DNA of 64,000 bases from an uncultured Nitrososphaerota archaeon (lineage in GTDB: Archaea > Thermoproteota > EX4484-205 > JAAOZP01): NCBI GenBank assembly GCA_964616835.1, contig CAZTSG010000001.1:8830-72829 (forward strand). The letters run 5' to 3'. The position numbers were made by a program, and so were the translations under genes. Positions 6,234 through 59,977 of this stretch are shown here, piece after piece. Below the pieces are notes generated by a model. That model did no database searches. It was not told where the DNA came from and saw nothing but the letters and a program-made list of their open reading frames with translations. The first letter of the stretch is position 1; each line of letters opens with the position of its first letter.

Positions 6234-6644
6234 ATGTGTGGTGGAAGGAAACTGCCTGCTGGATCATGCTACCACGGTGAAGGAGGGTGCCACGGTGAAG
6301 GGGGGCACATCTATCTTAAGGAAACCCCTGTTAGAGGGCTTTTACACCTATCAATCCTGAACTTGGTTAAGAACGGGCCTGTTTACGGTGCTGAAATATA
6401 TAGGGCTTTAAAAGAAAAGTATAACATTGAGGCTCCAAAAGCCATAATCTACGGTCTACTGAGAAGAATGGAGTACGCTGGCTTCCTAGCTTCAACATGG
6501 GATGTGGAGGGTGGAGGGCCTGCGAGAAGAAAGTATAAGATTACTGAGGAAGGATTAGACTATCTTAAAGACTCGCTGGAAAACCTTAGGAAGGTTAAGG
6601 GGGTAATCGACATTCTCCTCGCTGAGGATGTTGGCAAAGCCTAA
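6234..6644 (+). CDS. PadR family transcriptional regulator with a Cys/His-rich N-terminal extension
   Basis: Winged-helix PadR signature (YGAEIYRAL ... YGLLRRMEYAGFL ... RRKYKITEEG). The N-terminus reads CGG...CYHGEGGCHGEGGH, a tandem HGEGG peptide repeat. It immediately precedes an ABC transporter operon. Confidence 0.7.
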   Translation: MCGGRKLPAGSCYHGEGGCHGEGGHIYLKETPVRGLLHLSILNLVKNGPVYGAEIYRALKEKYNIEAPKAIIYGLLRRMEYAGFLASTWDVEGGGPARRKYKITEEGLDYLKDSLENLRKVKGVIDILLAEDVGKA

Positions 6645-6658
6645 AGGCGGCGAATCCT

Positions 6659-7579
6659 GTGAAAGCTATAGATGCTTTAGACCTTTACAAAAGGTTCGGT
6701 AGCATAGTGGCTGTAGACAGTGTTAGCTTCCAGGTGGAGGAAGGCGAGATATTCGGTCTTCTAGGTCCAAACGGTGCCGGTAAGACGACGACTATCCGCA
6801 TGTTAACAGGCATACTCAAGCCTGATAGAGGAGAGGCTAGAATAATGGGGTACAATATCCATAAGGATCCTGTTAAAGCAAGAATGTTGATCGGGGTGGT
6901 TCCTGAAGAGGCTAATCCGTATCCTGACCTGTCAGCTTGGGATAACCTGATGCTGGTTGGACGCTTATATGGTCTTCCGAAACACGCAGTGGGGGACAGA
7001 GCCTCTAGTCTGCTAAGACTCTTAGACCTATACGATGCTAGGAAACGGAGGGCTGGAAACCTTTCTAAGGGGATGAGGCAGAAGCTTCTCGTGGCTATGG
7101 CTTTAATCGGAGAGCCTAAGGTACTCTTCTTAGATGAACCTACATCCGGGCTTGATGTGTTGAGCACTAGAAAGATACGTAGCCTAATCCTTGACTTGAA
7201 GAAGAATGGTGTCACCATTCTTCTGACGACGCATAACGTAGAGGAGGCTGGAACTCTATGCGACAGGATTCTCATAATAAATGGTGGGCGAGTGGTTGAG
7301 ATGGGGACTCCAGAAGACCTTAGAATTAAGTCCGGGCTGTACACTTATGTGTCTGTGACGCTTAACAGAGCAGTAGACGAGAAGGATGCAGCGGGATTCT
7401 TTGATGAGTGGGATTACAGGATTCAGGGTTCTAGGATTCTCTTTGTTTGCAGTGATCTGACAAAACTGATGGTTAGAATAGTTGAATACGCTAAGGCGAA
7501 GGGTCTCGACATAGTCAACATAAGCACAGCACCGCCAAGCTTAGAGGACGTGTTTGTAAAAGTCATTGCAGGAGGATAG
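6659..7579 (+). CDS. ABC transporter ATP-binding protein (ABC-2/DrrA type), GTG start
   Basis: Walker A GPNGAGKTT, ABC signature LSKGMRQKL and Walker B LLFLDEPTSGLD. 306 aa with a C-terminal extension. Confidence 0.85.
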   Translation: MKAIDALDLYKRFGSIVAVDSVSFQVEEGEIFGLLGPNGAGKTTTIRMLTGILKPDRGEARIMGYNIHKDPVKARMLIGVVPEEANPYPDLSAWDNLMLVGRLYGLPKHAVGDRASSLLRLLDLYDARKRRAGNLSKGMRQKLLVAMALIGEPKVLFLDEPTSGLDVLSTRKIRSLILDLKKNGVTILLTTHNVEEAGTLCDRILIINGGRVVEMGTPEDLRIKSGLYTYVSVTLNRAVDEKDAAGFFDEWDYRIQGSRILFVCSDLTKLMVRIVEYAKAKGLDIVNISTAPPSLEDVFVKVIAGG

Positions 7580-8345
7580 AAGGATGAAAACCGTATCCTT
7601 TAGGCATTTCTCGATAGGTGTATGGACAATATGCTGGAAGGACATTAAACTTTACTATGCTAAGGGACCAATAGTTGTTACAGGTGTGCTTTTCCCTCTT
7701 TTTCTTTGGGCTGCCTTCTACATGGGCAGAGGCCTAGATTTTAATGAAGGATTGGCATCACTAGTAACGTTATCAATCTTCTTCACCTCTTCTTCAGTCA
7801 CACCAATAATAGCACCATGGGAAACTAGGCAGAGAACATTGGAGATGCTTATGTCCAGACCAGTAACAGTGACTACAATACTGGTTGGTGATATCTTGGC
7901 TTCAACGATCTTCGGGTTAATCTTCATAATTCCAATATTTTTATGCGGCGTAGTCCTAGGAGCGATACCAAGCAACGTTTTACTGGCTGCACTATTAACT
8001 GTGATTACCGCCGTAGGATTCTCATCTCTTGGAGTGCTTTTCTCCGCGTTACCTACCGATACACCTGCAGACGTCGTCTTATTAGCTAGCACCGTTAAGC
8101 TGCCCTTAATATTCGTTAGCGGAGTGTTAATACCGCTTTCACAGCTTCCGGAATGGGCTCTAGCAATAGCTGTGGTCTCTCCCTTAACTTATCCCACAGA
8201 CCTTTTGAGGGGGCTTTACATAGGCAACACGTTTTTCCCAATGTTCGCAGATTTTTCAGCTACAGTTGTCTTAACAGTCATATTTACACTAGGTGCTCTA
8301 ATACTTCATAAAAGAACGCTCTTCGCTAGACTACAAAAAAGATAG
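7566..8345 (+). CDS. ABC-2 family transporter permease
   Basis: 259 aa with six predicted TM helices. Its start overlaps the end of the ATPase gene. Confidence 0.7.
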   Translation: MQEDRRMKTVSFRHFSIGVWTICWKDIKLYYAKGPIVVTGVLFPLFLWAAFYMGRGLDFNEGLASLVTLSIFFTSSSVTPIIAPWETRQRTLEMLMSRPVTVTTILVGDILASTIFGLIFIIPIFLCGVVLGAIPSNVLLAALLTVITAVGFSSLGVLFSALPTDTPADVVLLASTVKLPLIFVSGVLIPLSQLPEWALAIAVVSPLTYPTDLLRGLYIGNTFFPMFADFSATVVLTVIFTLGALILHKRTLFARLQKR

Positions 8346-8911: not shown

Positions 8912-11527
8912 CTAAGCTACGGGGCATATGCTCCATCCGCAGTCTAGGCAGTGGAGGCATCCCCCCTCCTTAACAAGCCTCCTGCTGCCACAGTTGGGAC
9001 ACTGAGTGTATGTGTCAGTGCTCTCACTCCTGTCGAGAATCAGAACAGGTTTCTCAATACTAGTCACTGCCCTGGATGACATGCTGCTCGAGGTTTCTTC
9101 AAACCCTTTAATTTCGACTCCAAGCGATTTGGCAAGCTCTATCGTAGAGTTGCTGACTATCCTAGCATATTCCCCCGACTTAGAGGATGGTGCTACTAAC
9201 ACCTGCGAGGGGAGAGACCCCTCCCTATATATCGTAACGCCTTTCACACCCATTGCATGTGCCAGCATGAATGCTTTCTGAACGTCCTCCACAGTAACCC
9301 AGCTAGGCATGTTTATTGTTTTGCTTACTGCAGCACATATCCACTTAGTGAACTCTGCCTGCGCCCTAACGTGATCCCACCACGGTATGTCGTAGGCTAC
9401 TAGGAAGACTCTTGTTAACTCGCCGGGTAGGTCTAGTCCTATGAGCGAACCTCCGTTGTCTGAAACCATTTTAAGAACCCTCTCATCATACAGACCGTTC
9501 TCTCTTAGTGCTTTCTCAAACTCGACGTCAACATAGTAGAAGGTTCCTACAGTAACCCTTTTCTCATATATGAGTGCGAACTGCGGTTCTATTCCTGAAG
9601 AAACGTCTACTAGCATGGATATGGAGCCTGTTGGCGCTATGGTTGTGACTTCAGCATTCCTAATCCCGAACCTAATTATCTCGTGCTGTAGCTCGCGCCA
9701 CGGAAGGGTCTGCCAATCCTCATGGTAGAATCCCTCAATAGGCATCCCGCCTTCGGGGTATGAAGAGTTGGGGTACAGGGGAAACGGGCCGCGCTCCTTA
9801 GAGAGTTGACATGATTCCTTCATAGCGTGGAAAGTCAAGTGTTCCGCGATCCTGTTCATCATCCTGAAGCCTTCCTCACTGTTATACGGTATTCTGAGCG
9901 CGAAAAGCGTGTCTGCAAGACCCATGACTCCGAGGCCGACTTTCCTCGTCAGCTTTGTCTCACGTTCTATCTCCGGTATTGGAAACTTGTTAACATCTAT
10001 AACGTTGTCAAGAAACCTTAATGCAATTCTAATCGTTCTATCATATTCATCCCAATCAAAATACGTCTTTCCTCCTTCGTTTCTTATGAAAGCGTAGAGG
10101 TTTACTGAACCAAGGTTGCATGACTCATAAGGATACAATGGCTCTTCTCCGCAGGGGTTTGTCGATTTTATTAGCCCCTTATGCTTTGCAAGAATGTTTC
10201 TCCTGTTAATATTGTCGAGGAATACGACTCCAGGGTCTCCGGTTCTCCAAGCCATTTCAGCAATCTTCCAGAAGATATCGCGCGCATCCATGGTTTTCCA
10301 AACACTGCCGTTTCTAGGGTTTACCAACGGGTATTTGCCATCCTTCTTCAGATAATCCCAGAATTCTTCTTTAATCATAACGGATATGTTGAAGTTCTCT
10401 AGTCTTCCCCGCTCAGACTTTGACGTTATGAAAGCCTCTATGTCGGGATGGTCTATTTCCAGGATCCCCATGTTGGCTCCTCTTCTCTTTCCCCCCTGCT
10501 TCACAACTTCGGTAACAGTGTCTATTATCCTCATGAAGGAGACTGGGCCGCTTGCAACGCCGGAGGTGCTTGAAACAATGTCCCCAGCTGGCCTTAGCTT
10601 AGAGTAGTTTATCCCCACTCCACCGCCTGATTTGAAGATTATAGCTGCCTGAGTGGCTGCGTTCATTATGGATTCAATATTATCATCTATATCTAGGACG
10701 AAGCATGCTGAAAGCTGACCCAGCCTTGTCCCCGCATTGAAGAGCGTGGGCGAGTTAGGCATAAACCTTTTAGAGACCATGAGACTATAATATGCTTGAA
10801 AATTCTCGTAATAGTTGTCGAACTCGCCTGAGCTCAGCATCTTCAGGAAATCGCTCCAAGAAACCCTCATTCTACCCTGTGAGTTAAGCTCGTCGTAAAG
10901 CGTCTTCATACGCTCCAAATGATGCTCGTTCCAAGTTACGGAATAGCCCCCGCCACTCTTCCCGAGACCCAGCTTTCCAGCATAAGACTTGGCGTCGAAA
11001 TCCTCCTTTGGGAAAACGGGCAAACCCCCCTCCTTGTGGAAAACCCTCGGATCATAGAGTATATCCGGTATTACTATGGTCATCGCAACCCTCTGAAACA
11101 TCTGCTTAGGAGTTTCTATCAGCCTCCCGTTCTCATCCTTGAGCAGGTAGCGGTTGACCATGAGCCTGAGAGCGTTTACTGAGAACTCTTTCTCAACCTC
11201 GTCTATGAAATCCTTCTGGAGGAGCGCCTTCTTCTCCTCCCTTATACGCTCCCTCTCCTTCCTGTAGAGAATATACGCTTTAGCAACCTCGTAAAGGTCG
11301 AATTTCACGAGAGCAAGTTCAACAACATCCTGTATCTCTTCAACATGGGGAATCTTCCCTTCTTCATACTTCTTGCTTAGAACTTCAAGAACATAGTTGA
11401 CAACCTTATCCAATACCTTCTCATCATACTGTTTCACGCTCACCATGGCTTTCATAACAGCATTCCTAATTCTCTCAGGATTGAAATCAACAATCCTACC
11501 GTCCCTCTTCACAACCTTCTTATCCAT
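8912..11527 (-). CDS. nrdJ: class II (adenosylcobalamin-dependent) ribonucleoside reductase with N-terminal ATP-cone and C-terminal zinc ribbon
   Basis: 871 aa. ATP-cone VVKRDGRIVDFNPERIRNAV. Active-site region STNPCGEEPLY ... CNLGS. C-terminal CPNCG...CLHCLDCG zinc ribbon. No intein-sized insertion. Confidence 0.8.
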   Translation of the reverse strand: MDKKVVKRDGRIVDFNPERIRNAVMKAMVSVKQYDEKVLDKVVNYVLEVLSKKYEEGKIPHVEEIQDVVELALVKFDLYEVAKAYILYRKERERIREEKKALLQKDFIDEVEKEFSVNALRLMVNRYLLKDENGRLIETPKQMFQRVAMTIVIPDILYDPRVFHKEGGLPVFPKEDFDAKSYAGKLGLGKSGGGYSVTWNEHHLERMKTLYDELNSQGRMRVSWSDFLKMLSSGEFDNYYENFQAYYSLMVSKRFMPNSPTLFNAGTRLGQLSACFVLDIDDNIESIMNAATQAAIIFKSGGGVGINYSKLRPAGDIVSSTSGVASGPVSFMRIIDTVTEVVKQGGKRRGANMGILEIDHPDIEAFITSKSERGRLENFNISVMIKEEFWDYLKKDGKYPLVNPRNGSVWKTMDARDIFWKIAEMAWRTGDPGVVFLDNINRRNILAKHKGLIKSTNPCGEEPLYPYESCNLGSVNLYAFIRNEGGKTYFDWDEYDRTIRIALRFLDNVIDVNKFPIPEIERETKLTRKVGLGVMGLADTLFALRIPYNSEEGFRMMNRIAEHLTFHAMKESCQLSKERGPFPLYPNSSYPEGGMPIEGFYHEDWQTLPWRELQHEIIRFGIRNAEVTTIAPTGSISMLVDVSSGIEPQFALIYEKRVTVGTFYYVDVEFEKALRENGLYDERVLKMVSDNGGSLIGLDLPGELTRVFLVAYDIPWWDHVRAQAEFTKWICAAVSKTINMPSWVTVEDVQKAFMLAHAMGVKGVTIYREGSLPSQVLVAPSSKSGEYARIVSNSTIELAKSLGVEIKGFEETSSSMSSRAVTSIEKPVLILDRSESTDTYTQCPNCGSRRLVKEGGCLHCLDCGWSICPVA

Positions 11528-11893: not shown

Positions 11894-12244
11894 ATGAGCT
11901 TGGAATCATTATTAATACAGATTATAGTTGAAACCATAGTTGTTGCTCCGGTTCTGTGGATTGCTGGGAGGATTATGGTGGGGGAGAAGAAGGCTAAGTT
12001 CACAGACGCTGTTTGGATCGTCGTCCTAGGTGTTATTCTGGGTGCGGTTATAGGTGCTTTCCTACACGGCTTAGTAGCGCGCGCGCTTATCAGTTTCATA
12101 GTTTGGCTGGCTTTGATCAAGCATTTCTTCGACTGCGGCTGGTTGAAGGCTTTCGTCATAGCTGTTTTCGCAGCGATACTCTTCGTAATCATAGCTGTAA
12201 TAATAGGAGTAATACTTGGAGTTGCATTGATTGCACTACTATAA
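11894..12244 (+). CDS. small hydrophobic membrane protein (hypothetical)
   Basis: 116 aa, almost entirely hydrophobic, three to four predicted TM helices. Confidence 0.35.
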   Translation: MSLESLLIQIIVETIVVAPVLWIAGRIMVGEKKAKFTDAVWIVVLGVILGAVIGAFLHGLVARALISFIVWLALIKHFFDCGWLKAFVIAVFAAILFVIIAVIIGVILGVALIALL

Positions 12245-12273: not shown

Positions 12274-12672
12274 TTATCCCAGTAAGACTATAATCTCTAC
12301 TTCATCGCCATCACTGAGATTGAGTTTTTTGCGCAGATTTATTGGCGCTATTATTTCCACGATGTCTCTAGGATAAGATGGGACTTGAGGGATTACGATT
12401 GCACCCTCGACCTTGCCAGCTACTACTGCTTTGAAGCATTTTCCAGGGTAGAAGCCTTCTCTAGGAACTATTTCTATCCCGTGGTAACTGTCTAGTATTT
12501 CCCTTACGGCTCTAAACTCTGGAGGCAGTTGAATGTTAAGAGTTCCAGGATACGGTTTGAACCCCAGTTTTTCTACGAATTGATCCATAGCCCAAGGGAT
12601 GCTTACGAAAAAACTTCCCCTACTTTTGCCGCTGAAAACAATACCTTCCAAAATTATCTGATTCTTGGTCAT
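12274..12672 (-). CDS. ribK: CTP-dependent riboflavin kinase, archaeal type (stand-alone kinase domain)
   Basis: Archaeal RibK signature GFKPYPGTLNIQL. 132 aa. Overlaps the upstream xylanase gene by 4 nt (ATGA). Confidence 0.65.
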   Translation of the reverse strand: MTKNQIILEGIVFSGKSRGSFFVSIPWAMDQFVEKLGFKPYPGTLNIQLPPEFRAVREILDSYHGIEIVPREGFYPGKCFKAVVAGKVEGAIVIPQVPSYPRDIVEIIAPINLRKKLNLSDGDEVEIIVLLG

Positions 12673-13790
12673 CGGATTGTACCTATTTTTTCCAGCATGG
12701 CTTCGATTAAGGCGTAGTACGCCGGCTTAGGATTGTAGTTCTCGTCGAAAATTAGGGCTGCGCCATATCCTGGGAAAGCATGGGGTACCCAAGAATGTTT
12801 GTCTGTGAAGCCCCACATGATGAAGGCCTGTGGGCTATCGCTGTCCAAATACGCTTTGAAGATCTTCTTATATATTTCTGCCTGTTTAGTAAGTTCTTCT
12901 TCTGAAACAGGGAGCCTAATAGCGACATCCATCTCCGTTATCTCCACCTTTAGGCCGAGCTCTCTGAACCTCCTTATATTCTCTGCAATGCTTTGAGGAT
13001 CAGGGTGCCATTCAACTCTGATATGCATCTGCAATCCTATTCCATGTATTGGAACCCCTTTTTCCAGAAGGTTCTTAATCAAGTTGTATATTGCGTTGGA
13101 CTTCCTGTTTATGCCTTCTGCACCATAATCGTTATAGAAGAGCAATGCATTAGGGTCAGCTTCATGCGCCCACCTGAAGGCGAGCTCAATGTATTCTGGG
13201 CCTATGTTTCTAAGCCAGACAGTATCTCTTAAAGTACCATCGTCGTTGAAAGCCTCGTTAACAACATCCCAAGCATATATCTTGCCCCGATAGTATCCGA
13301 CAACCGTGAAAATATGGTCTCGAAGAATATTAATCCACCCCTCCCTTGTAAAATTCCCGTTAACCACCCAATCCGGTAGCTGATTGTGCCAGACAAGAGT
13401 GTGACCACGAACCTTCATTCCATGTTCCTCGGCGAATGAAACTATTGAATCTGCCATCGAAAAATCATAAACCATCCTATGGGGATGAATCATATAAAAC
13501 TTCATCTCGTTCTCTGGAGTAATAACATTAAATTCACGAGCGAGAATGCTTGCATACTTTTCCTCGCTCAAGGGGAAATAGCTTACGGCCGTTCCAATCA
13601 TTATGCCGCAAGACTCAGCGAGCTCTCTCAAAGTATGGTTTTGAAACAAGGAATAATCATGGTTCGCCATATCCTCGTTATTTTTCACCTTCGTTTTAAA
13701 CACCTGCCAGATTATGAAGGAGGCTAAAATAAGCATTGTTGTTCCGAAGATTACCGCAGTTTTCAATCTGCCTGTTTGCAACCTGTCCAT
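12669..13790 (-). CDS. glycoside hydrolase family 10 endo-1,4-beta-xylanase, N-terminal membrane anchor/signal
   Basis: GH10 motifs GHTLVWHNQLPDWV, acid/base WDVVNEA and nucleophile motif EITEMD. N-terminal hydrophobic segment MLILASFIIWQVF. 373 aa. Confidence 0.8.
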   Translation of the reverse strand: MDRLQTGRLKTAVIFGTTMLILASFIIWQVFKTKVKNNEDMANHDYSLFQNHTLRELAESCGIMIGTAVSYFPLSEEKYASILAREFNVITPENEMKFYMIHPHRMVYDFSMADSIVSFAEEHGMKVRGHTLVWHNQLPDWVVNGNFTREGWINILRDHIFTVVGYYRGKIYAWDVVNEAFNDDGTLRDTVWLRNIGPEYIELAFRWAHEADPNALLFYNDYGAEGINRKSNAIYNLIKNLLEKGVPIHGIGLQMHIRVEWHPDPQSIAENIRRFRELGLKVEITEMDVAIRLPVSEEELTKQAEIYKKIFKAYLDSDSPQAFIMWGFTDKHSWVPHAFPGYGAALIFDENYNPKPAYYALIEAMLEKIGTIR

Positions 13791-13821
13791 GGAGATTAGA
13801 GCTCAATATTTTTAAGACTTT

Positions 13822-14268
13822 ATGGCTTGGGAAAGTCCGGGGAATATTCTTACGCAAATATTCATAACACTAGTAATGATTACATTCGGCTACCCAGTAT
13901 TCGGAGTAGTTGCAATACCTGATGTACCCGCCATAATTATAATACTTGCAGGGGGTGGCGGCGTTCTCCGGGCTGGGCATGATATTCGGCGGGTCTTCAA
14001 AAACGTTGAAGCCTCATCCGCTCTCGGTAATGCCGTTGCGTTTCCCATGATGTTTCTCTCAGGGTCCTTCTGGTCTGTTGAAATAATGCCTCCCATACTA
14101 CAGTCGCTTGCAAAAATCATGCCTCTAACATACTTCTTCAACGCGCTTCGGAGTGCCATAATATACAAGGAGCCACTAAATGCCTTATACAACCTTGCAA
14201 TACTACCGGTGTTAGCAGTAGTCTTCATCACTATCGGAACAATACTCATCAGGTGGGAAGAAGATTAG
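13822..14268 (+). pseudogene. C-terminal fragment of an ABC-2 family permease (probable gene remnant)
   Basis: 148 aa covering only about three TM helices, with an ABC-2 permease-like C-terminal region (FPMMFLSGSFWSVEIMPPILQSL...). No N-terminal half upstream, where the xylanase gene begins. Confidence 0.35.
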
Positions 14269-14370
14269 GACGGTGCTAATACCAGTGTCAGCTACAAGTT
14301 GAAGCTGCAACAGCCTCTACGTAGACCAAGATGGGAATAGGCCTTCTCCTCCTTAATCCCGAATTAATGC

Positions 14371-14443
14371 GGGCCCGGAGGGATTTGAACCCTCGGCCAT
14401 CAGGTTAAGAGCCTGCCGCTCTACCATGCTGAGCTACGGGCCC
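14371..14443 (-). tRNA. tRNA-Lys (anticodon CUU)
   Basis: The reverse complement gives GGGCCCG-TA-GCTC-AGCATGGTA-GAGC, anticodon loop CTCTTAA and T-arm GAGGG-TTCAAAT-CCCTC with acceptor CGGGCCC. One non-Watson-Crick 27-43 pair. Confidence 0.75.
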
Positions 14444-14515: not shown

Positions 14516-14959
14516 ATGGGTAAGAGCGGTAAGATTGTTCTCACCACTGGTGTGTTCGACATCATTCACCCTGGTCACATAAGGTTCTTGGAAGAGGCTA
14601 AGAGGCTGGCCGGCAAGGATGGTAGGCTTATAGTTATCGTCGCCTGCGACAGCGTTGTTAGGAAGAGTAAGGGGAGAAGCCCCATGTTCAGAGCTAGAGA
14701 TAGAGCTCTCATGATTTCTAGGCTTAAGCCTGTTGACGCTGTGTATGTTGGCAGGCGGGGGAGGCTTGAGAAAAACATCTCGTGGTTTCTTAAGAAGATT
14801 AGGCCTGATATTCTTGTGTTCGGCTACGACCAAGAGTCAGTTATGAAGAATACTCTTAAAGTTATGGGTGAGCTTGGGCTTAGAATTAGAGTTGTAAAGA
14901 TGAGAAAGTTCTACGACATCAGCAGTAGCAAGATAATAAGGAGGATTAAGAAATCTTGA
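14516..14959 (+). CDS. ribL: FAD synthetase (FMN adenylyltransferase), archaeal RibL type
   Basis: Cytidylyltransferase fold motif TTGVFDIIHPGHIRFL. 147 aa, the size of archaeal RibL. Divergent from the HTH-RibK gene. Confidence 0.75.
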   Translation: MGKSGKIVLTTGVFDIIHPGHIRFLEEAKRLAGKDGRLIVIVACDSVVRKSKGRSPMFRARDRALMISRLKPVDAVYVGRRGRLEKNISWFLKKIRPDILVFGYDQESVMKNTLKVMGELGLRIRVVKMRKFYDISSSKIIRRIKKS

Positions 14960-14967
14960 GGGGGAGC

Positions 14968-15666
14968 TTATTCACGGGTTGTTGTTTTGAAAAAGAACAT
15001 TACCTTGTCCCCGTCTTCCAACCCCAGTTCCTTCCTCAAGTTGTAGCGTGAGATTATTTCAACCACGGAGCTATCGTATATTGTTCTCAACGCTTTTATC
15101 ACTGCCCCATCGTATTTCTCGTTTACAACGACCGGGTAGCAATATACCTCTCCAAAAGTTCTCTCCTGGTCTGAGAAGCCGTGTATAACTATGGGTGGCT
15201 TAGACATTTTCTCGGCGAGTATCAACTGGTCCATGTAGTTCTCTATCTTAAGGTTTAGAGTACCCGGATAGGGGTAGAAGCCCAGCCTCGTGTGAAACTG
15301 GTCGAGATAAGGTTTCCTAGAAACGTAGTATGCTCCCTCCCCCAGCCCCGTGAAAACCCTGCCGGTGAAGACATGAGTCACATAGACCTTGTTTACTATC
15401 GACATTATCGACCCAACGTGGAGCTTAATCTGGTTAATACCCTTGTCTGAGAGCCTTACCACTCTCCCTTTGGGGGACATCATTGTCTCAATCAGCTTCT
15501 CTTTTTCAAGCTCCTTCAGGTACCTAGAAGCTGATTGGTGCGAAACGTCAATAGCCTTGGACAATTCTCTAGTGGAGATGTAGGTCTTGCCTTCTTGTAT
15601 CAGCTTGGCGATTGCAAGCAGCATATATGTCTTCTTATACTCTTTCATCTTATACTTTTCCGACAT
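14968..15666 (-). CDS. ribK: HTH transcriptional regulator fused to CTP-dependent riboflavin kinase (COG1339-type riboflavin/FAD operon regulator)
   Basis: N-terminal HTH (ISTRELSKAIDVSHQSASRYLKELE) plus a C-terminal RibK domain with GFYPYPGTLNLKI. 232 aa. Confidence 0.75.
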   Translation of the reverse strand: MSEKYKMKEYKKTYMLLAIAKLIQEGKTYISTRELSKAIDVSHQSASRYLKELEKEKLIETMMSPKGRVVRLSDKGINQIKLHVGSIMSIVNKVYVTHVFTGRVFTGLGEGAYYVSRKPYLDQFHTRLGFYPYPGTLNLKIENYMDQLILAEKMSKPPIVIHGFSDQERTFGEVYCYPVVVNEKYDGAVIKALRTIYDSSVVEIISRYNLRKELGLEDGDKVMFFFKTTTRE

Positions 15667-57572: not shown

Positions 57573-58424
57573 ATGAACATAGTAGAGCTGAGAAACGTGA
57601 GCTTCCGATACGCGGGCTCCGAGAGAAACGTTTTATCAAATCTTAATCTTAAGATTGAGGAAGGAGAGAGTGTACTCATAACGGGTCCCTCGGGTTGCGG
57701 GAAGTCTACGATAGCTAGAGTCATCACGGGCTTGATACCGCATAGTTATCCCGGGGATTTCAGTGGCGAAGCATATGTCTTAGGCATGAACGTTTTGGAG
57801 AACCCGGTTAGCAGAATTGCGACGAGTTGCGGGATCGTGTTTCAAAACCCCGAAAACCAACTGTTCACTTTCAGCGTGGAGGATGATGTCGCATTCGGAC
57901 CTGAAAACCTCGCCCTCCCCCCTGACGAGATTTGTAGGAGAGTCGACGAATCTCTTAGGCTTGTTGGAATAGAACATCTCAGACGTGCTTCTCCAAACAG
58001 TATTTCAGGCGGGGAGCAGCAGAAGGCGGCTATCGCATCCATACTCTCCATGCATCCGTCCTTGATAATTTTTGACGAGCCTACTTCTATGCTGGACCCC
58101 TCGTCGTCAGCTAGTCTGATTCAAAGCATCTTCAGGCTTAAGGAGAGTCTTAGAAGGATGGGGAAGGAGATAACGCTGATAATTATAGAGCATAGGATTA
58201 GTCTACTTATTGACCATATCTCAAGGATGATTGTTGTGTCAGACGGTAGAATAGTTCTCGACGGAGACCCTATGATGGTTCTCAACGAGAGCTTTAAAAG
58301 AAGGATTCCGATCAACATCCCCCCGGTTCTTCAAATATACTTCAGGATTAAGGATAGGTGCGGCTTAGAGAAGCCTCCGAGAAGCCTCAAAGAGCTCCTC
58401 TCTCATTTAAGGGAGGCGGGTTGA
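57573..58424 (+). CDS. ecfA: ECF (energy-coupling factor) transporter ATPase EcfA1/CbiO
   Basis: Walker A GPSGCGKST, signature ISGGEQQKAAIAS, Walker B LIIFDEPTSMLD. 283 aa. Confidence 0.8.
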   Translation: MNIVELRNVSFRYAGSERNVLSNLNLKIEEGESVLITGPSGCGKSTIARVITGLIPHSYPGDFSGEAYVLGMNVLENPVSRIATSCGIVFQNPENQLFTFSVEDDVAFGPENLALPPDEICRRVDESLRLVGIEHLRRASPNSISGGEQQKAAIASILSMHPSLIIFDEPTSMLDPSSSASLIQSIFRLKESLRRMGKEITLIIIEHRISLLIDHISRMIVVSDGRIVLDGDPMMVLNESFKRRIPINIPPVLQIYFRIKDRCGLEKPPRSLKELLSHLREAG

Positions 58425-58430
58425 TGAGAA

Positions 58431-59255
58431 ATGGTTGAAATAGTTGTCGAGAACCTTTTCTTCAAATATCCGGAAGCTGAGGACTATGCTTTGAAAAGCG
58501 TTAATCTCGTCATTAAAGAAGGTGAGAGTATTGCGATACTTGGTGAAAACGGCGCTGGCAAGACAACGCTTGCTAAAAACCTTAACGGCCTGCTCAAGCC
58601 AACCCGGGGAAGCGTTAGGATCGAAGGCGTGGATACGAGGAGCCTCTCGGTTGCGAAGATAGCTAGGAAAATAGGCTTCGTATGCCATAACCCCGACCAC
58701 CAGTTTTTTGCAGAAACGGTTGAGGAAGAGATCCGGTTTGGACTGAGGAACTTCGGTTTCCCTGAGGACGAGGCTGAGAAGAGCGTCCAGGAGGCTCTGA
58801 AAACATTCGGATTGGAGGAGTATAGGTCTAGAAACCCTTTCCAACTGAGCGGTGGAGAGAAGAAGAGACTGGCCATGGCTTCGATAATGGTTTGGCACCC
58901 GGAGTTACTGATCTTGGACGAGCCGACAATAGGCATGGACTATGCTCAGAGGCTGAATATTCAAAGAGTTCTTAAAAACCTGGTTTCAGAAGGCAGGAGC
59001 ATAGTTGTGATAACTCACGACGTTGATTTTGCTGCAAGCCTGTGCGAGAGAGCAATAATCCTAAGCAGGGGTGAAGTAATTGGAGACGGATGCTTACGCA
59101 AGCTTCTTTCAGATAGTGAAGTTGTTGAGAAAGCCTCCTTGAGAAAGCCCTTCTTGATCGAGCTTGAGGAAGAGGCTGGTTTCTCAAAGATGGAGGAGGA
59201 TTTCGACGAGATATGCGATTTTCTGACGAGGGTGTTTCCTAAATGTCGTTCCTAA
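58431..59255 (+). CDS. ecfA: ECF transporter ATPase EcfA2/CbiO
   Basis: Walker A GENGAGKTT, signature LSGGEKKRLAMAS, Walker B LLILDEPTIGMD. 274 aa. Confidence 0.8.
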   Translation: MVEIVVENLFFKYPEAEDYALKSVNLVIKEGESIAILGENGAGKTTLAKNLNGLLKPTRGSVRIEGVDTRSLSVAKIARKIGFVCHNPDHQFFAETVEEEIRFGLRNFGFPEDEAEKSVQEALKTFGLEEYRSRNPFQLSGGEKKRLAMASIMVWHPELLILDEPTIGMDYAQRLNIQRVLKNLVSEGRSIVVITHDVDFAASLCERAIILSRGEVIGDGCLRKLLSDSEVVEKASLRKPFLIELEEEAGFSKMEEDFDEICDFLTRVFPKCRS

Positions 59256-59977
59256 GAGCATTCAAATACAAGAGGAAGGATTCTTTAATACATAGGCTGG
59301 ATCCCAGGTCTAAGTTTCTTCTCTCAATAGTGTTAATGTCTTTTTCAATAGTGTTTCTTGATTTGCGCATACTCTTTGCAATCCTAATTTTTCAAATAAC
59401 CCTATTAGGCTTGGCGAAGACTCTTAGAGAATGGGTTTATTCACTCAGGGGGTTAATCTTCTTTTTCATAATAATATTCATCACGCAAATACTATTCGGC
59501 GGGAGCCTTTTCACAGGATTCATACTCTCCTTAAGGCTTATAGTATTATCATCGTCGATGTCCTGGTTTTTCCTTTCCTCTACTCCCGAGGATATTGGTA
59601 GAGCTATGAGCGCTGCGCGAATCCCCATAGAGCTTACTTTCTCCTTCATAATGGCCATCCGTTTCATACCTGTTATCTACGACGAGTTCCAATCCATATA
59701 CGATGCGCAGCGTTCACGTGGGCTGGAGCTTGAAAAAGGAGGCTTCAGGACGAGAATAAGAAACCTTATGCCGATTCTAATCCCCCTTCTCGTCGGGACA
59801 ATAAGGAGGACTTATGAGATCGCCGACGCGATGGAGGTTAGGGCCTTCGGGGCCTCGCCCAAGAGAACAAGCTACAAGCCTTTAAAGTTTGGAAGGGGAG
59901 ACTATTTTATCTGCTTAGCCGCAGCAATACTGGCTCTACTCATTTTCTACCTTAAACTGTTTTTAGGGCTGGAGTAG
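59243..59977 (+). CDS. ecfT: ECF transporter transmembrane component EcfT/CbiQ
   Basis: 244-aa polytopic protein with the EcfT C-terminal motif region (EIADAMEVRAFG). Confidence 0.75.
   Translation: MSFLRAFKYKRKDSLIHRLDPRSKFLLSIVLMSFSIVFLDLRILFAILIFQITLLGLAKTLREWVYSLRGLIFFFIIIFITQILFGGSLFTGFILSLRLIVLSSSMSWFFLSSTPEDIGRAMSAARIPIELTFSFIMAIRFIPVIYDEFQSIYDAQRSRGLELEKGGFRTRIRNLMPILIPLLVGTIRRTYEIADAMEVRAFGASPKRTSYKPLKFGRGDYFICLAAAILALLIFYLKLFLGLE

Follow-up and report, generated by a model that had tools for sequence, protein, structure and literature searches.

A probably resident and vertically inherited GH10 xylanase gene beside a permease remnant in a Brockarchaeota-type archaeal genome

Extracellular GH10 xylanases are already known in Brockarchaeota: the supplement of De Anda 2021 lists predicted extracellular GH10 enzymes from eight hot-spring Brockarchaeota MAGs (nine genes), with two copies in the MAG QC4_43 (PMC8065059). 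In the searched parts of that paper, gene order, a RibK neighbour and a membrane anchor are not treated. The closest described enzymes are XynB of T. maritima (1VBR/1VBU) and the GH10 of T. petrophila (3NIY), both single-domain thermostable xylanases. In 2021, CAZy held 44 archaeal and 4,321 bacterial GH10 entries (PMC8458939). Two described systems bear on the flavin genes that surround the xylanase gene studied here. MJ0056 of Methanocaldococcus jannaschii (2P3M, 2VBV) is a stand-alone riboflavin kinase (RibK) of about 132 aa, while RbkR of Thermoplasma acidophilum (Ta1064; 3CTA/5TRD; Rodionova et al. 2017) combines a wHTH domain with the kinase. In the description of the RbkR family, the CTP-site residues of the T. 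acidophilum protein are Gly102/104/106, Thr131-Leu132-Asn133 and Leu202-Arg203, and the FMN-site residues Tyr115 and Glu195 are termed absolutely conserved (PMC5397151).

The window (the whole 64,000-nt stretch of DNA analysed, from an uncultured Nitrososphaerota archaeon) contains a GH10 gene followed by a RibK-type gene and preceded by a fragment of an ABC-2 permease gene. We consider it highly probable that this is a resident, vertically inherited xylanase locus of a Brockarchaeota-type archaeon from a hot spring, in which the adjacency to RibK is inherited and carries no obligatory link, and in which the permease is a recent remnant, not a gene disrupted in place.

The xylanase gene (12669..13790, minus strand) encodes a 373-aa protein that matches PF00331 over nearly the full length of the profile (E 4.1e-111; positions 2-310 of 311; score 371.6 bits, cut-off 22.1) and contains the motifs GHTLVWHNQLPDW, WDVVNEA and ITEMD. 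E179 in WDVVNE (codon 13254..13256, minus strand) is the predicted acid/base catalyst and E286 in ITEMD (codon 12933..12935, minus strand) the predicted nucleophile; both align with the corresponding motifs of 1VBR, and neither varies across 20 archaeal homologues. Among solved structures, T. maritima XynB (1VBR) matches best (E 1e-114, residues 50-369), and the alignments to the solved barrels 1VBR, 3NIY and 1XYZ are gap-poor (E 1e-103 to 1e-114), from which a (beta/alpha)8 TIM-barrel fold is predicted. The dN/dS values of 0.09-0.15 against three orthologues indicate purifying selection. GC content (0.437) and GC3 (0.489) both lie inside the range of the neighbouring genes.

The N-terminus of the protein carries a putative signal-anchor at residues ~9-32 (13695..13766, minus strand), with basic residues R3, R8 and K10 before the hydrophobic stretch. 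This is the sole hydrophobic stretch in the protein (Kyte-Doolittle, 19-residue window, above 1.6), and a basic and hydrophobic N-terminus is retained in all orthologues, even where the sequence itself has fully diverged. The GH10 hallmarks and the N-terminal anchor that the preliminary description had read from this ORF are therefore both borne out, and the evidence supports its assignment as a bona fide, anchored GH10. It is likely that the product is a retaining endo-beta-1,4-xylanase tethered outside the cytoplasmic membrane by its uncleaved signal-anchor and a linker of 20-40 residues, a topology predicted from the N-terminus. The enzyme would cut xylan to oligosaccharides that the cell could then import, a step that fits the xylan/xylose metabolism proposed for the phylum.

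A block of ~55 nt directly upstream of the gene (13791..13846, minus strand) is conserved in L004, L011 and L014, three relatives that lack the permease fragment. It includes a TATA-like element, TTAAAAATA, at -25 to -17. In leaderless archaeal mRNAs such an element typically lies ~5 nt farther from the ATG, which leaves the exact start of the xylanase uncertain. For the QC4_43 orthologue, the start chosen by NCBI is an internal Met; the resulting protein has 339 aa, and this choice probably leaves out the membrane anchor.

The gene order EndoV-RbkR-RibL-tRNA-Lys-GH10-(RibK)-mem116-RNR-CobA recurs in L004-6, L015, L011, L014, L095, L097 and L050. Identity of the GH10 protein to that of the window is 92% in L011, 87% in L014, 86% in L004-6 and L015, and 65% in L050. 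L014 is contig QC4_scaffold_54 of the Candidatus Brockarchaeota MAG QC4_43, the closest named genome, and in it RbkR, RibL, RibK, RNR and CobA flank GH10 in the same order as in the window. The mem116 gene (11894..12244, plus strand), convergent with RibK and GH10, encodes a conserved multi-pass membrane protein of 116 aa with no Pfam or NCBIfam match, and in every syntenic relative it adjoins GH10 or RibK. On the other side, a tRNA-Lys(CTT) gene found with ARAGORN (14369..14443, minus strand) is conserved in L004, L011, L014 and L095, and its 3' end bounds a variable spacer: homology among the relatives stops no more than ~15 nt from it. An integrated element between tRNA-Ser and tRNA-Lys was considered and rejected, since this interval has no att-like or inverted repeats and is of ordinary composition. 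It contains no integrase-like ORF, and the only repeat found is the T-arm that the two tRNAs share, not a duplicated 3' part of the tRNA.

Homologues of the xylanase fall into over 100 protein clusters (56-92% identity), the named ones mostly from Bathyarchaeia, Thermoproteota or Brockarchaeota, and among the best 80 GH10 loci in GTDB species representatives ~30 are archaeal. The rarity of GH10 in archaea, as first described, thus holds for CAZy and cultured genomes but not for MAGs. In a neighbour-joining tree without support values, built from taxa picked by similarity, the 31 archaeal sequences included all fall into a single clade nested among the bacterial GH10s, and the window sequence groups with its syntenic relatives. 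A single archaeal clade nested in this way implies that any transfer was ancient. Together with the conserved synteny of the orthologues, this argues against recent import, and GH10 appears to be a long-standing vertical trait of the Brockarchaeal lineage. Three genomes, QC4_43, DRTY-6_82 and JZ-1_83, have two GH10 copies each.

The gene that follows GH10 (12274..12672, minus strand) encodes a stand-alone RibK/DUF120 paralogue of 132 aa, here called RibK132. Its residues 12-128 match PF01982 (E 4.8e-35, profile positions 1-120 of 121), and it is homologous to the riboflavin kinase MJ0056 (2P3M; E 9e-20). The dN/dS values are 0.17-0.28. RibK132 keeps TLN (44-46), Glu106 and Leu113-Arg114. Its GxGxG loop reads G15-K-S17-R-G19, the change of the middle Gly to Ser being confined to the window lineage; the relatives have GKGRG or GEGKG. 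At the position of the FMN-site Tyr it has Ala, adjoined by Trp (P27-W28-A29), and this replacement of Tyr by P-W-(A/V) is common to the whole short RibK subfamily; the Trp may stand in for the Tyr. With the NCBIfam equivalog model ribK_Meth (NF040694; cut-off 168 bits), RibK132 reaches only 90.5 bits, and the canonical RbkR copy in the same genome, at 92.9 bits, also falls short, which indicates that the model is lineage-narrow. RibK132 is most likely a CTP-dependent riboflavin kinase. Weak MazE/AbrB matches at its C-terminus, which we take to reflect the cradle-loop-barrel/AbrB relationship, were not counted as evidence that it is an antitoxin.

The window also encodes a canonical RbkR and a probable RibL, both within ~3 kb of RibK132. 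RbkR (14968..15666, minus strand; 232 aa), 2.3 kb away, is a wHTH protein with a CTP-dependent riboflavin kinase domain (PF01982, E 2.3e-38, plus MarR/HTH matches), and its motifs are all canonical (GLGEG, P-Y, TLN, E, LR). A cytidylyltransferase-like gene (14516..14959, plus strand; PF01467, E 3.8e-22, with a weak FAD_syn match) occupies the position of the archaeal FAD synthetase RibL. The tail-to-tail arrangement of RbkR and RibL recurs widely in archaeal metagenome loci. Two other origins of RibK132 were rejected. One is recent duplication from the kinase domain of RbkR; the two share only 37% identity, and RibK132 groups with the widespread short family. The other, that GH10 split an ancestral divergent pair of RibL and RibK, finds no support among 80 metagenomic RibK-type loci, in which the matches adjacent to RibL either have a detectable wHTH (RbkR type) or lie behind EndoV in the RbkR position, and the short stand-alone genes nearest to RibK132 sit elsewhere.

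The stop codon of GH10 (12669-12671) and the start codon of RibK132 (12670-12672) overlap as ATGA on the minus strand, in agreement with the preliminary description. At least six related lineages have GH10 and RibK as a pair, the two genes being -4 to +43 nt apart, and the pair persists down to 57% RibK identity. In L011 a Fpg-like gene lies between the two, and in L050 and L007 RibK is missing from the locus and GH10 is kept. The flanks of 22 other archaeal GH10 loci contain no RibK, and GH10 is near none of the 80 metagenomic RibK-type loci. The adjacency, the pairing first described as odd, thus appears to be a clade-restricted, inherited gene order. It is likely that RibK132 is co-transcribed, being read through from GH10 only as a consequence of gene packing in this clade and with no obligatory functional link.

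Alternatively, GH10 and the DUF120/RibK paralogue could form a functional operon, in which the paralogue has a xylan-linked role, acting on another substrate or in regulation, instead of housekeeping FMN synthesis. Retention of the pair with tight or overlapping junctions would fit such an operon, as would the presence of a canonical RbkR kinase in the genome, the P-W-(A/V) sequence of the paralogue family at the otherwise absolutely conserved Tyr115 (PMC5397151), and the sub-threshold NCBIfam score; the adjacency also survives considerable divergence, and synteny alone is compatible with a functional link. However, the pair is broken in L011, GH10 persists in L050 and L007 without RibK, the same short family is widespread with no GH10 nearby (0/80 loci), and the CTP/FMN-binding TLN, Glu and Leu-Arg are all kept. 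Moreover, the entire neighbourhood is syntenic, so the conserved adjacency is not independent evidence. We therefore regard the functional operon as very unlikely. A more specific proposal is that the short DUF120 subfamily, with P-W-A/V in place of Tyr and coexisting with a canonical RbkR, is something other than a plain riboflavin kinase, and that in the Brockarchaeal clade it was recruited into a xylanase operon for a role linked to xylan, for example with a different phospho-acceptor or as a sensor. Such recruitment would make GH10-DUF120 a real functional unit, and we think it decidedly unlikely. Inherited gene order remains the preferred reading of the pair.

The ORF upstream of GH10 (13822-14268, plus strand; 148 aa) is divergent from it, with 31 nt between them. 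Its matches to ABC-2 profiles are confined to their C-terminal portions (PF01061 positions 104-210 of 211; PF12698 positions 219-346 of 347), and it also matches drrB-type TIGRFAMs. It was first described as a C-terminal permease fragment with no N-terminal half, which the profile ends confirm, although it lies on the opposite strand to the xylanase. No ABC ATPase gene is adjacent. Homologues with intact N-termini are 227-243 aa long, or ~420 aa in L013, and the 148-aa form is confined to the window lineage, which points to a remnant, not to a full family of small proteins. When a longer homologue was compared with the fragment by tblastn, only its residues 98-243 aligned. The ~420-aa permease gene of L013, itself decaying, has 82% nucleotide identity at its 3' end over exactly the stretch that we annotate as the ABC-2 permease 3' remnant (13839..14270, plus strand). 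A complete PadR-ATPase-ABC-2 operon at 6234-8345 was rejected as the parent of the fragment because the identity is only 25%, and no viral relatives of the fragment were found.

Within the remnant, a stretch at 13951..13993 (plus strand) is out of frame: a +1 shift in the G-run 13951-13955 is compensated by a -1 shift at GGCGGG 13988-13993. The ORF frame reads GGGVLRAGHDIRRVF, while the alternative frame reads GVAAFSGLGMIFGG, like the homologues (GSVMFSGIGMLLSG). The effect is to put R, H, D, R and R into a transmembrane helix. The ATG of the ORF and its first eight codons lie inside the GH10 upstream block, on the opposite strand, and at the position of this ATG (13822) the relatives have ATT, ACT or ATA. 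Since the ATG falls within the conserved block, the fragment abuts a pre-existing GH10 promoter region. At the junction of block and fragment lies a 7-nt microhomology, GGGGAATA (13839..13846, unstranded): GGGAATA closes the conserved block in L011, L004 and L014, and the permease sequence of L013 is GGGGAATATTCTTAC. No permease remnants were found by tblastn in L004-6, L011 or L014. Since even the closest relative, L011, lacks any trace of the permease, GH10 was resident before the fragment arrived. We read the ORF, on these alignments, as a true remnant, the non-functional 3' end (~435 nt) of an ABC-2 permease gene. Its junction with the GH10 upstream region, which was already in place, is probably a recent product of illegitimate recombination, or of a deletion, mediated by the microhomology. 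The remnant occupies the hypervariable spacer that directly follows tRNA-Lys, and its ATG is probably fortuitous.

The ORF could also be envisaged as a domesticated half-permease that functions as a small membrane protein, its expression running from the GH10 promoter region in the divergent direction. All 148 codons are open because the two frameshifts compensate each other, the sequence is identical in three independent assemblies, and the last 91 codons have a dN/dS of 0.15 and a codon-position pattern of 10/4/24 against L013. A very recent truncation fits this low dN/dS, and residual constraint would also fit. On the other hand, the form is missing from every other lineage and has neither an ATPase nor an N-terminal half; five charged or polar residues from the frameshifted stretch fall in a transmembrane helix; the ATG arose in GH10 upstream DNA, 5-15 nt from the sole TATA-like element, with an in-frame stop 6 nt before it; and the L013 relative is decaying too. 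We consider domestication very unlikely, and a recent, non-functional remnant the better account.

Recent horizontal transfer of a GH10 (+RibK) cassette into a resident ABC-2 permease gene, with loss of the 5' half of that gene, is equally hard to credit. In its favour, GH10 is overwhelmingly bacterial, bacterial sequences surround the archaeal clade in the tree, the closest solved structure comes from Thermotoga, the truncated permease abuts the GH10 start and two tRNA genes flank the block. But the chromosomal context is the same in relatives down to 65% GH10 identity, relatives with no permease DNA (L011 among them, at 92%) share the upstream block, past which alone the permease homology begins, the composition is not anomalous and no att-like copies of the tRNA are present. 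The preliminary description had named synteny of GH10 orthologues across the lineage as an observation that would refute it, and such synteny is what the relatives show. The earlier suggestion that an insertion or acquisition of GH10 disrupted a transporter gene is thus not upheld.

For enzymology, the gene in the window is a further candidate among thermophilic archaeal GH10s, and beyond annotation hygiene the locus has little import. In the literature searched, no GH10 of this archaeal clade was found to have been characterised biochemically. The 148-aa ORF is better annotated as a pseudogene remnant than as an ABC transporter permease, and the spacer downstream of tRNA-Lys would be a small natural case of microhomology-mediated accretion of junk DNA in an archaeal genome.

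Compared with complete ABC-2 permeases, the remnant has only the C-terminal 35-60%, is frameshifted and lacks an ATPase partner; what it shares with ABC-2 (DrrB/NodJ-like) exporters is the final transmembrane helices of the PF01061 and PF12698 profiles. RibK132 resembles MJ0056 in being a stand-alone protein of the same domain and length, and the two have the PYPGTLN, Glu and Leu-Arg ligand residues in common. The identity is ~35-40% by eye, and RibK132 differs in its G-K-S-R-G loop, in the family-specific P-W-A at the FMN-contacting Tyr and in the presence of RbkR in the same genome. The 232-aa neighbour has the wHTH and kinase architecture of T. acidophilum RbkR, whereas RibK132 lacks the wHTH. 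At 37% identity to the kinase domain of the RbkR in its own genome, it is not a recent duplicate.

The xylanase aligns with 1VBR from end to end of the catalytic domain (residues 50-369 against 2-324), with WDVVNEA and ITEMD identical and most of the surrounding conserved residues as well. Unlike the Thermotoga enzymes, it has an N-terminal transmembrane anchor and a linker, and its archaeal clade is separate in the neighbour-joining tree. The GH10s reported by De Anda 2021 (PMC8065059) belong to the same phylum-level group and are the same gene as that of the window. The window represents a different species-level lineage from those MAGs, and the ABC-2 remnant is particular to it.

All of the features given in the preliminary description are borne out by the sequence. 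The 373-aa ORF at 12669-13790 (minus strand) matches the GH10 profile PF00331 over nearly its whole length (E 4e-111) and carries the motifs GHTLVWHNQLPDW, WDVVNEA, and ITEMD. In the comparison with Thermotoga maritima XynB (1VBR, E 1e-114), E179 and E286 fall on the catalytic motifs, and both are invariant across 20 aligned archaeal homologues. The sole hydrophobic segment lies at residues ~9-32, preceded by three basic residues. A basic and hydrophobic N-terminus is found in all GH10 orthologues, including those of the related loci L094, L095, L097, and L050, where its sequence has diverged beyond recognition; retention of the segment despite this divergence argues that the anchor is translated and functional. 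A conserved TATA-like element, TTAAAAATA, occupies positions -25 to -17 relative to the ATG, ~5 nt nearer than is usual for leaderless archaeal mRNA, and the start site is therefore a predicted one. In Candidatus Brockarchaeota isolate QC4_43 (locus L014), NCBI's public 339-aa model of the orthologue at 10001-11122 (MBO3799580.1) begins at an internal Met and excludes the conserved transmembrane anchor, which is probably a start-site mis-call. The gene is predicted to encode a membrane-tethered extracellular endoxylanase of a xylan-using Brockarchaeon.

QC4_43 is the top GTDB species-representative match (GH10 87% identical), and the identical locus was recovered in three independent assemblies (ENA, JGI, and Logan). 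Brockarchaeota are reported to be able to degrade xylan (De Anda et al. 2021, PMC8065059); the supplement to that study lists "GH10+CBM22 (Extracellular)" for eight hot-spring MAGs with nine genes, two of them in QC4_43. A hot-spring CAZyme survey also reported GH10 from Brockarchaeota and Bathyarchaeota (PMC8857248). The rarity of archaeal GH10 remarked on in the preliminary description holds for CAZy, with 44 archaeal entries against 4,321 bacterial (PMC8458939), but not for metagenome-derived proteins, where the clade is a large one, comprising over 100 clusters with 56-92% identity; those named to taxon are mostly archaeal. Several Brockarchaeota/Bathyarchaeia genomes encode two GH10 paralogues of different subclades (L014 and L029; L017 and L027; L035 and L039; L009 and L095), and a divergent GH30–GH10 pair is common among them. 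The same pair occurs in more distant archaea (L009, L016, L017, L032). Among the ORFs checked in the 64-kb window GH10 is the sole CAZyme, the remainder being core housekeeping genes (RNA polymerase A/B, EF-1α, IMPDH, PolB, exosome, SBDS).

An acquisition of GH10 that disrupted a transporter gene had been proposed from the sequence alone. GH10 orthologues, however, were found in a shared gene order across the lineage, a finding that the preliminary description had itself named as counting against its model: EndoV–RbkR→ ←RibL ←tRNA-Lys GH10→ (RibK→) ←116-aa membrane protein … RNR–CobA, where RbkR is a wHTH and CTP-dependent riboflavin kinase, RibL an FAD synthetase-like protein, and RNR a ribonucleotide reductase. 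This order is present in L004-6/L015 (GH10 86% identical), L011/L012 (92%), L014 (87%), L095 and L097 (where GH2 precedes RNR), and L050 (GH10 65%, RbkR 76%, RNR ~80%). In L050 and L007, GH2 and GH30 lie between RibL and GH10. GC (0.437) and GC3 (0.489) of GH10 fall inside the local range, and its dN/dS is 0.09-0.15 against three orthologues, with similar values for its neighbours. In a neighbour-joining tree (82 GH10 domains, no support values), all 31 archaeal sequences form one clade nested among bacterial ones, and the window sits beside its syntenic relatives. GH10 is thus not a recent insertion, and the synteny, dN/dS, composition, and single nested clade together place any transfer from bacterium to archaeon in the distant past.

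Two neighbouring genes showed features of their own. The 116-aa multi-pass membrane protein at 11894-12244 (plus strand), which has no family match in Pfam or NCBIfam, runs convergently to GH10 or RibK in every case, even in relatives without RibK. The class II RNR (8912-11527) is an intein-free 871-aa protein in the window, L011, and L014; in several close relatives (L004 13214-17014, L007 6481-10284, L095, and L097) the orthologues are ~1266 aa, with an intein and LAGLIDADG endonuclease all at one insertion site.

The transporter remnant itself is genuine. The 148-aa ORF at 13822-14268 aligns to ABC-2 permease profiles in their C-terminal part only, and its homologues that keep the N-terminus run to 227-243 aa. 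It begins 31 nt from the GH10 start codon and, as a correction to the first description, lies on the plus strand, divergent from GH10. Its closest relative, in L013, is a ~420-aa gene that is itself frameshifted (330 + 93 aa) and follows a fragmented ATPase; nucleotide identity to the window, 82%, is limited to 13839-14270. That L013 operon (193-2356) looks decayed, its ATPase lying in pieces of 95, 163, and 35 aa and its permease interrupted by an indel; the G-rich site of that indel is also where the window is shifted. The remnant has two frame changes, +1 in the G-run 13951-13955 and -1 at 13988-13993, between which the homologous peptide GVAAFSGLGMIFGG falls in another frame; the ORF there reads GGGVLRAGHDIRRVF, where a transmembrane helix would be expected. 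Its last 91 codons have a dN/dS of 0.15 against L013, a value that fits recent truncation, in agreement with the absence of the fragment from the closest relative, L011; it was not found in L004-6 or L014 either. The remnant is a pseudogene scrap preceding GH10. At 6234-8345 lies a PadR–ABC ATPase–ABC-2 permease operon that is complete and unrelated to the remnant (25% identity); in L004-L006 the syntenic position holds only a ~840-nt gap.

Alignment of the tRNA-Lys-to-GH10 spacers was decisive. Relatives without the fragment share with the window a conserved ~55-nt block upstream of GH10, from which the 148-aa ORF takes its ATG and opening eight codons (MAWESPGN); at this ATG the relatives read ATT, ACT, or ATA. 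The block ends in GGGAATA and the L013 permease has GGGGAATATTCTTAC at the corresponding point, which identifies the junction at 13839-13846 as a 7-nt microhomology. From the block to the tRNA-Lys 3' end, the DNA is unrelated between lineages (~110 nt in L004, ~640 nt in L011, ~520 nt in the window); this spacer is hypervariable. Att repeats, an integrase, and viral relatives were sought at the locus and none was found. Of the two, the permease fragment arrived later and GH10 was already resident, the opposite of the order of events first envisaged.

The GH10 stop overlaps, as ATGA on the minus strand, the start of a 132-aa RibK/DUF120 ORF (12274-12672, minus strand; PF01982), here called RibK132. 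This had been taken for an odd functional pairing of co-transcribed genes, a reading that the comparison with relatives does not support. The adjacency recurs with spacers of -4 to +43 nt in no fewer than six lineages; an Fpg/Nei-like gene separates the two genes in the closest relative, L011, and L050 and L007 have no RibK at the locus. A further 22 archaeal GH10 loci all lacked a neighbouring RibK, and 80 RibK-type loci from metagenomes all lacked a neighbouring GH10. Inherited packing peculiar to this clade is the best reading of the pairing, and co-transcription would be a by-product of it. The L011 RibK allele (10140-10532) is saturated at synonymous sites (pS 0.78, against 0.13-0.23 in flanking genes), which suggests local allele replacement by recombination. 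The Fpg/Nei-like gene lies at L011 9152-9928; a 51-aa piece of the same gene, 70% identical, lies at 7732-7884, upstream of GH10.

RibK132 is probably a monofunctional riboflavin kinase. Of the residues that Rodionova et al. 2017 (PMC5397151) single out, it retains T-L-N, Glu, and Leu-Arg; its P-loop reads G-K-S-R-G, in which Ser is specific to the window lineage, and its dN/dS of 0.17-0.28 indicates purifying selection. A xylan-linked novel function for the short DUF120 subfamily of RibK132 seems very improbable. Two ABC ATPases and an EcfT/CbiQ-type protein, together forming an ECF-transporter energising module, are encoded at 57573-59977, 43 kb from the flavin genes. RibK132 and the kinase domain of the neighbouring RbkR-type protein (14968-15666) share only 37% identity; RibK132 belongs to a family of 128-136-aa DUF120 proteins widespread in Bathyarchaeia and Thermoproteota. 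It is nearest to the stand-alone Methanocaldococcus jannaschii kinase MJ0056 (E 9e-20), and less similar to RbkR of Thermoplasma acidophilum. Throughout the short subfamily (P0144-P0262, 128-136 aa), P-W-(A/V) replaces a Tyr described as absolutely conserved in RibK and RbkR (PMC5397151). In the window's clade the subfamily occurs together with a canonical RbkR. The 119 genomes surveyed in 2017 (PMC5397151) were listed by lineage as having either RbkR or RibK. This subfamily, with its Tyr-to-Trp pattern and its coexistence with RbkR, is the sole mildly unusual feature that the analysis leaves.
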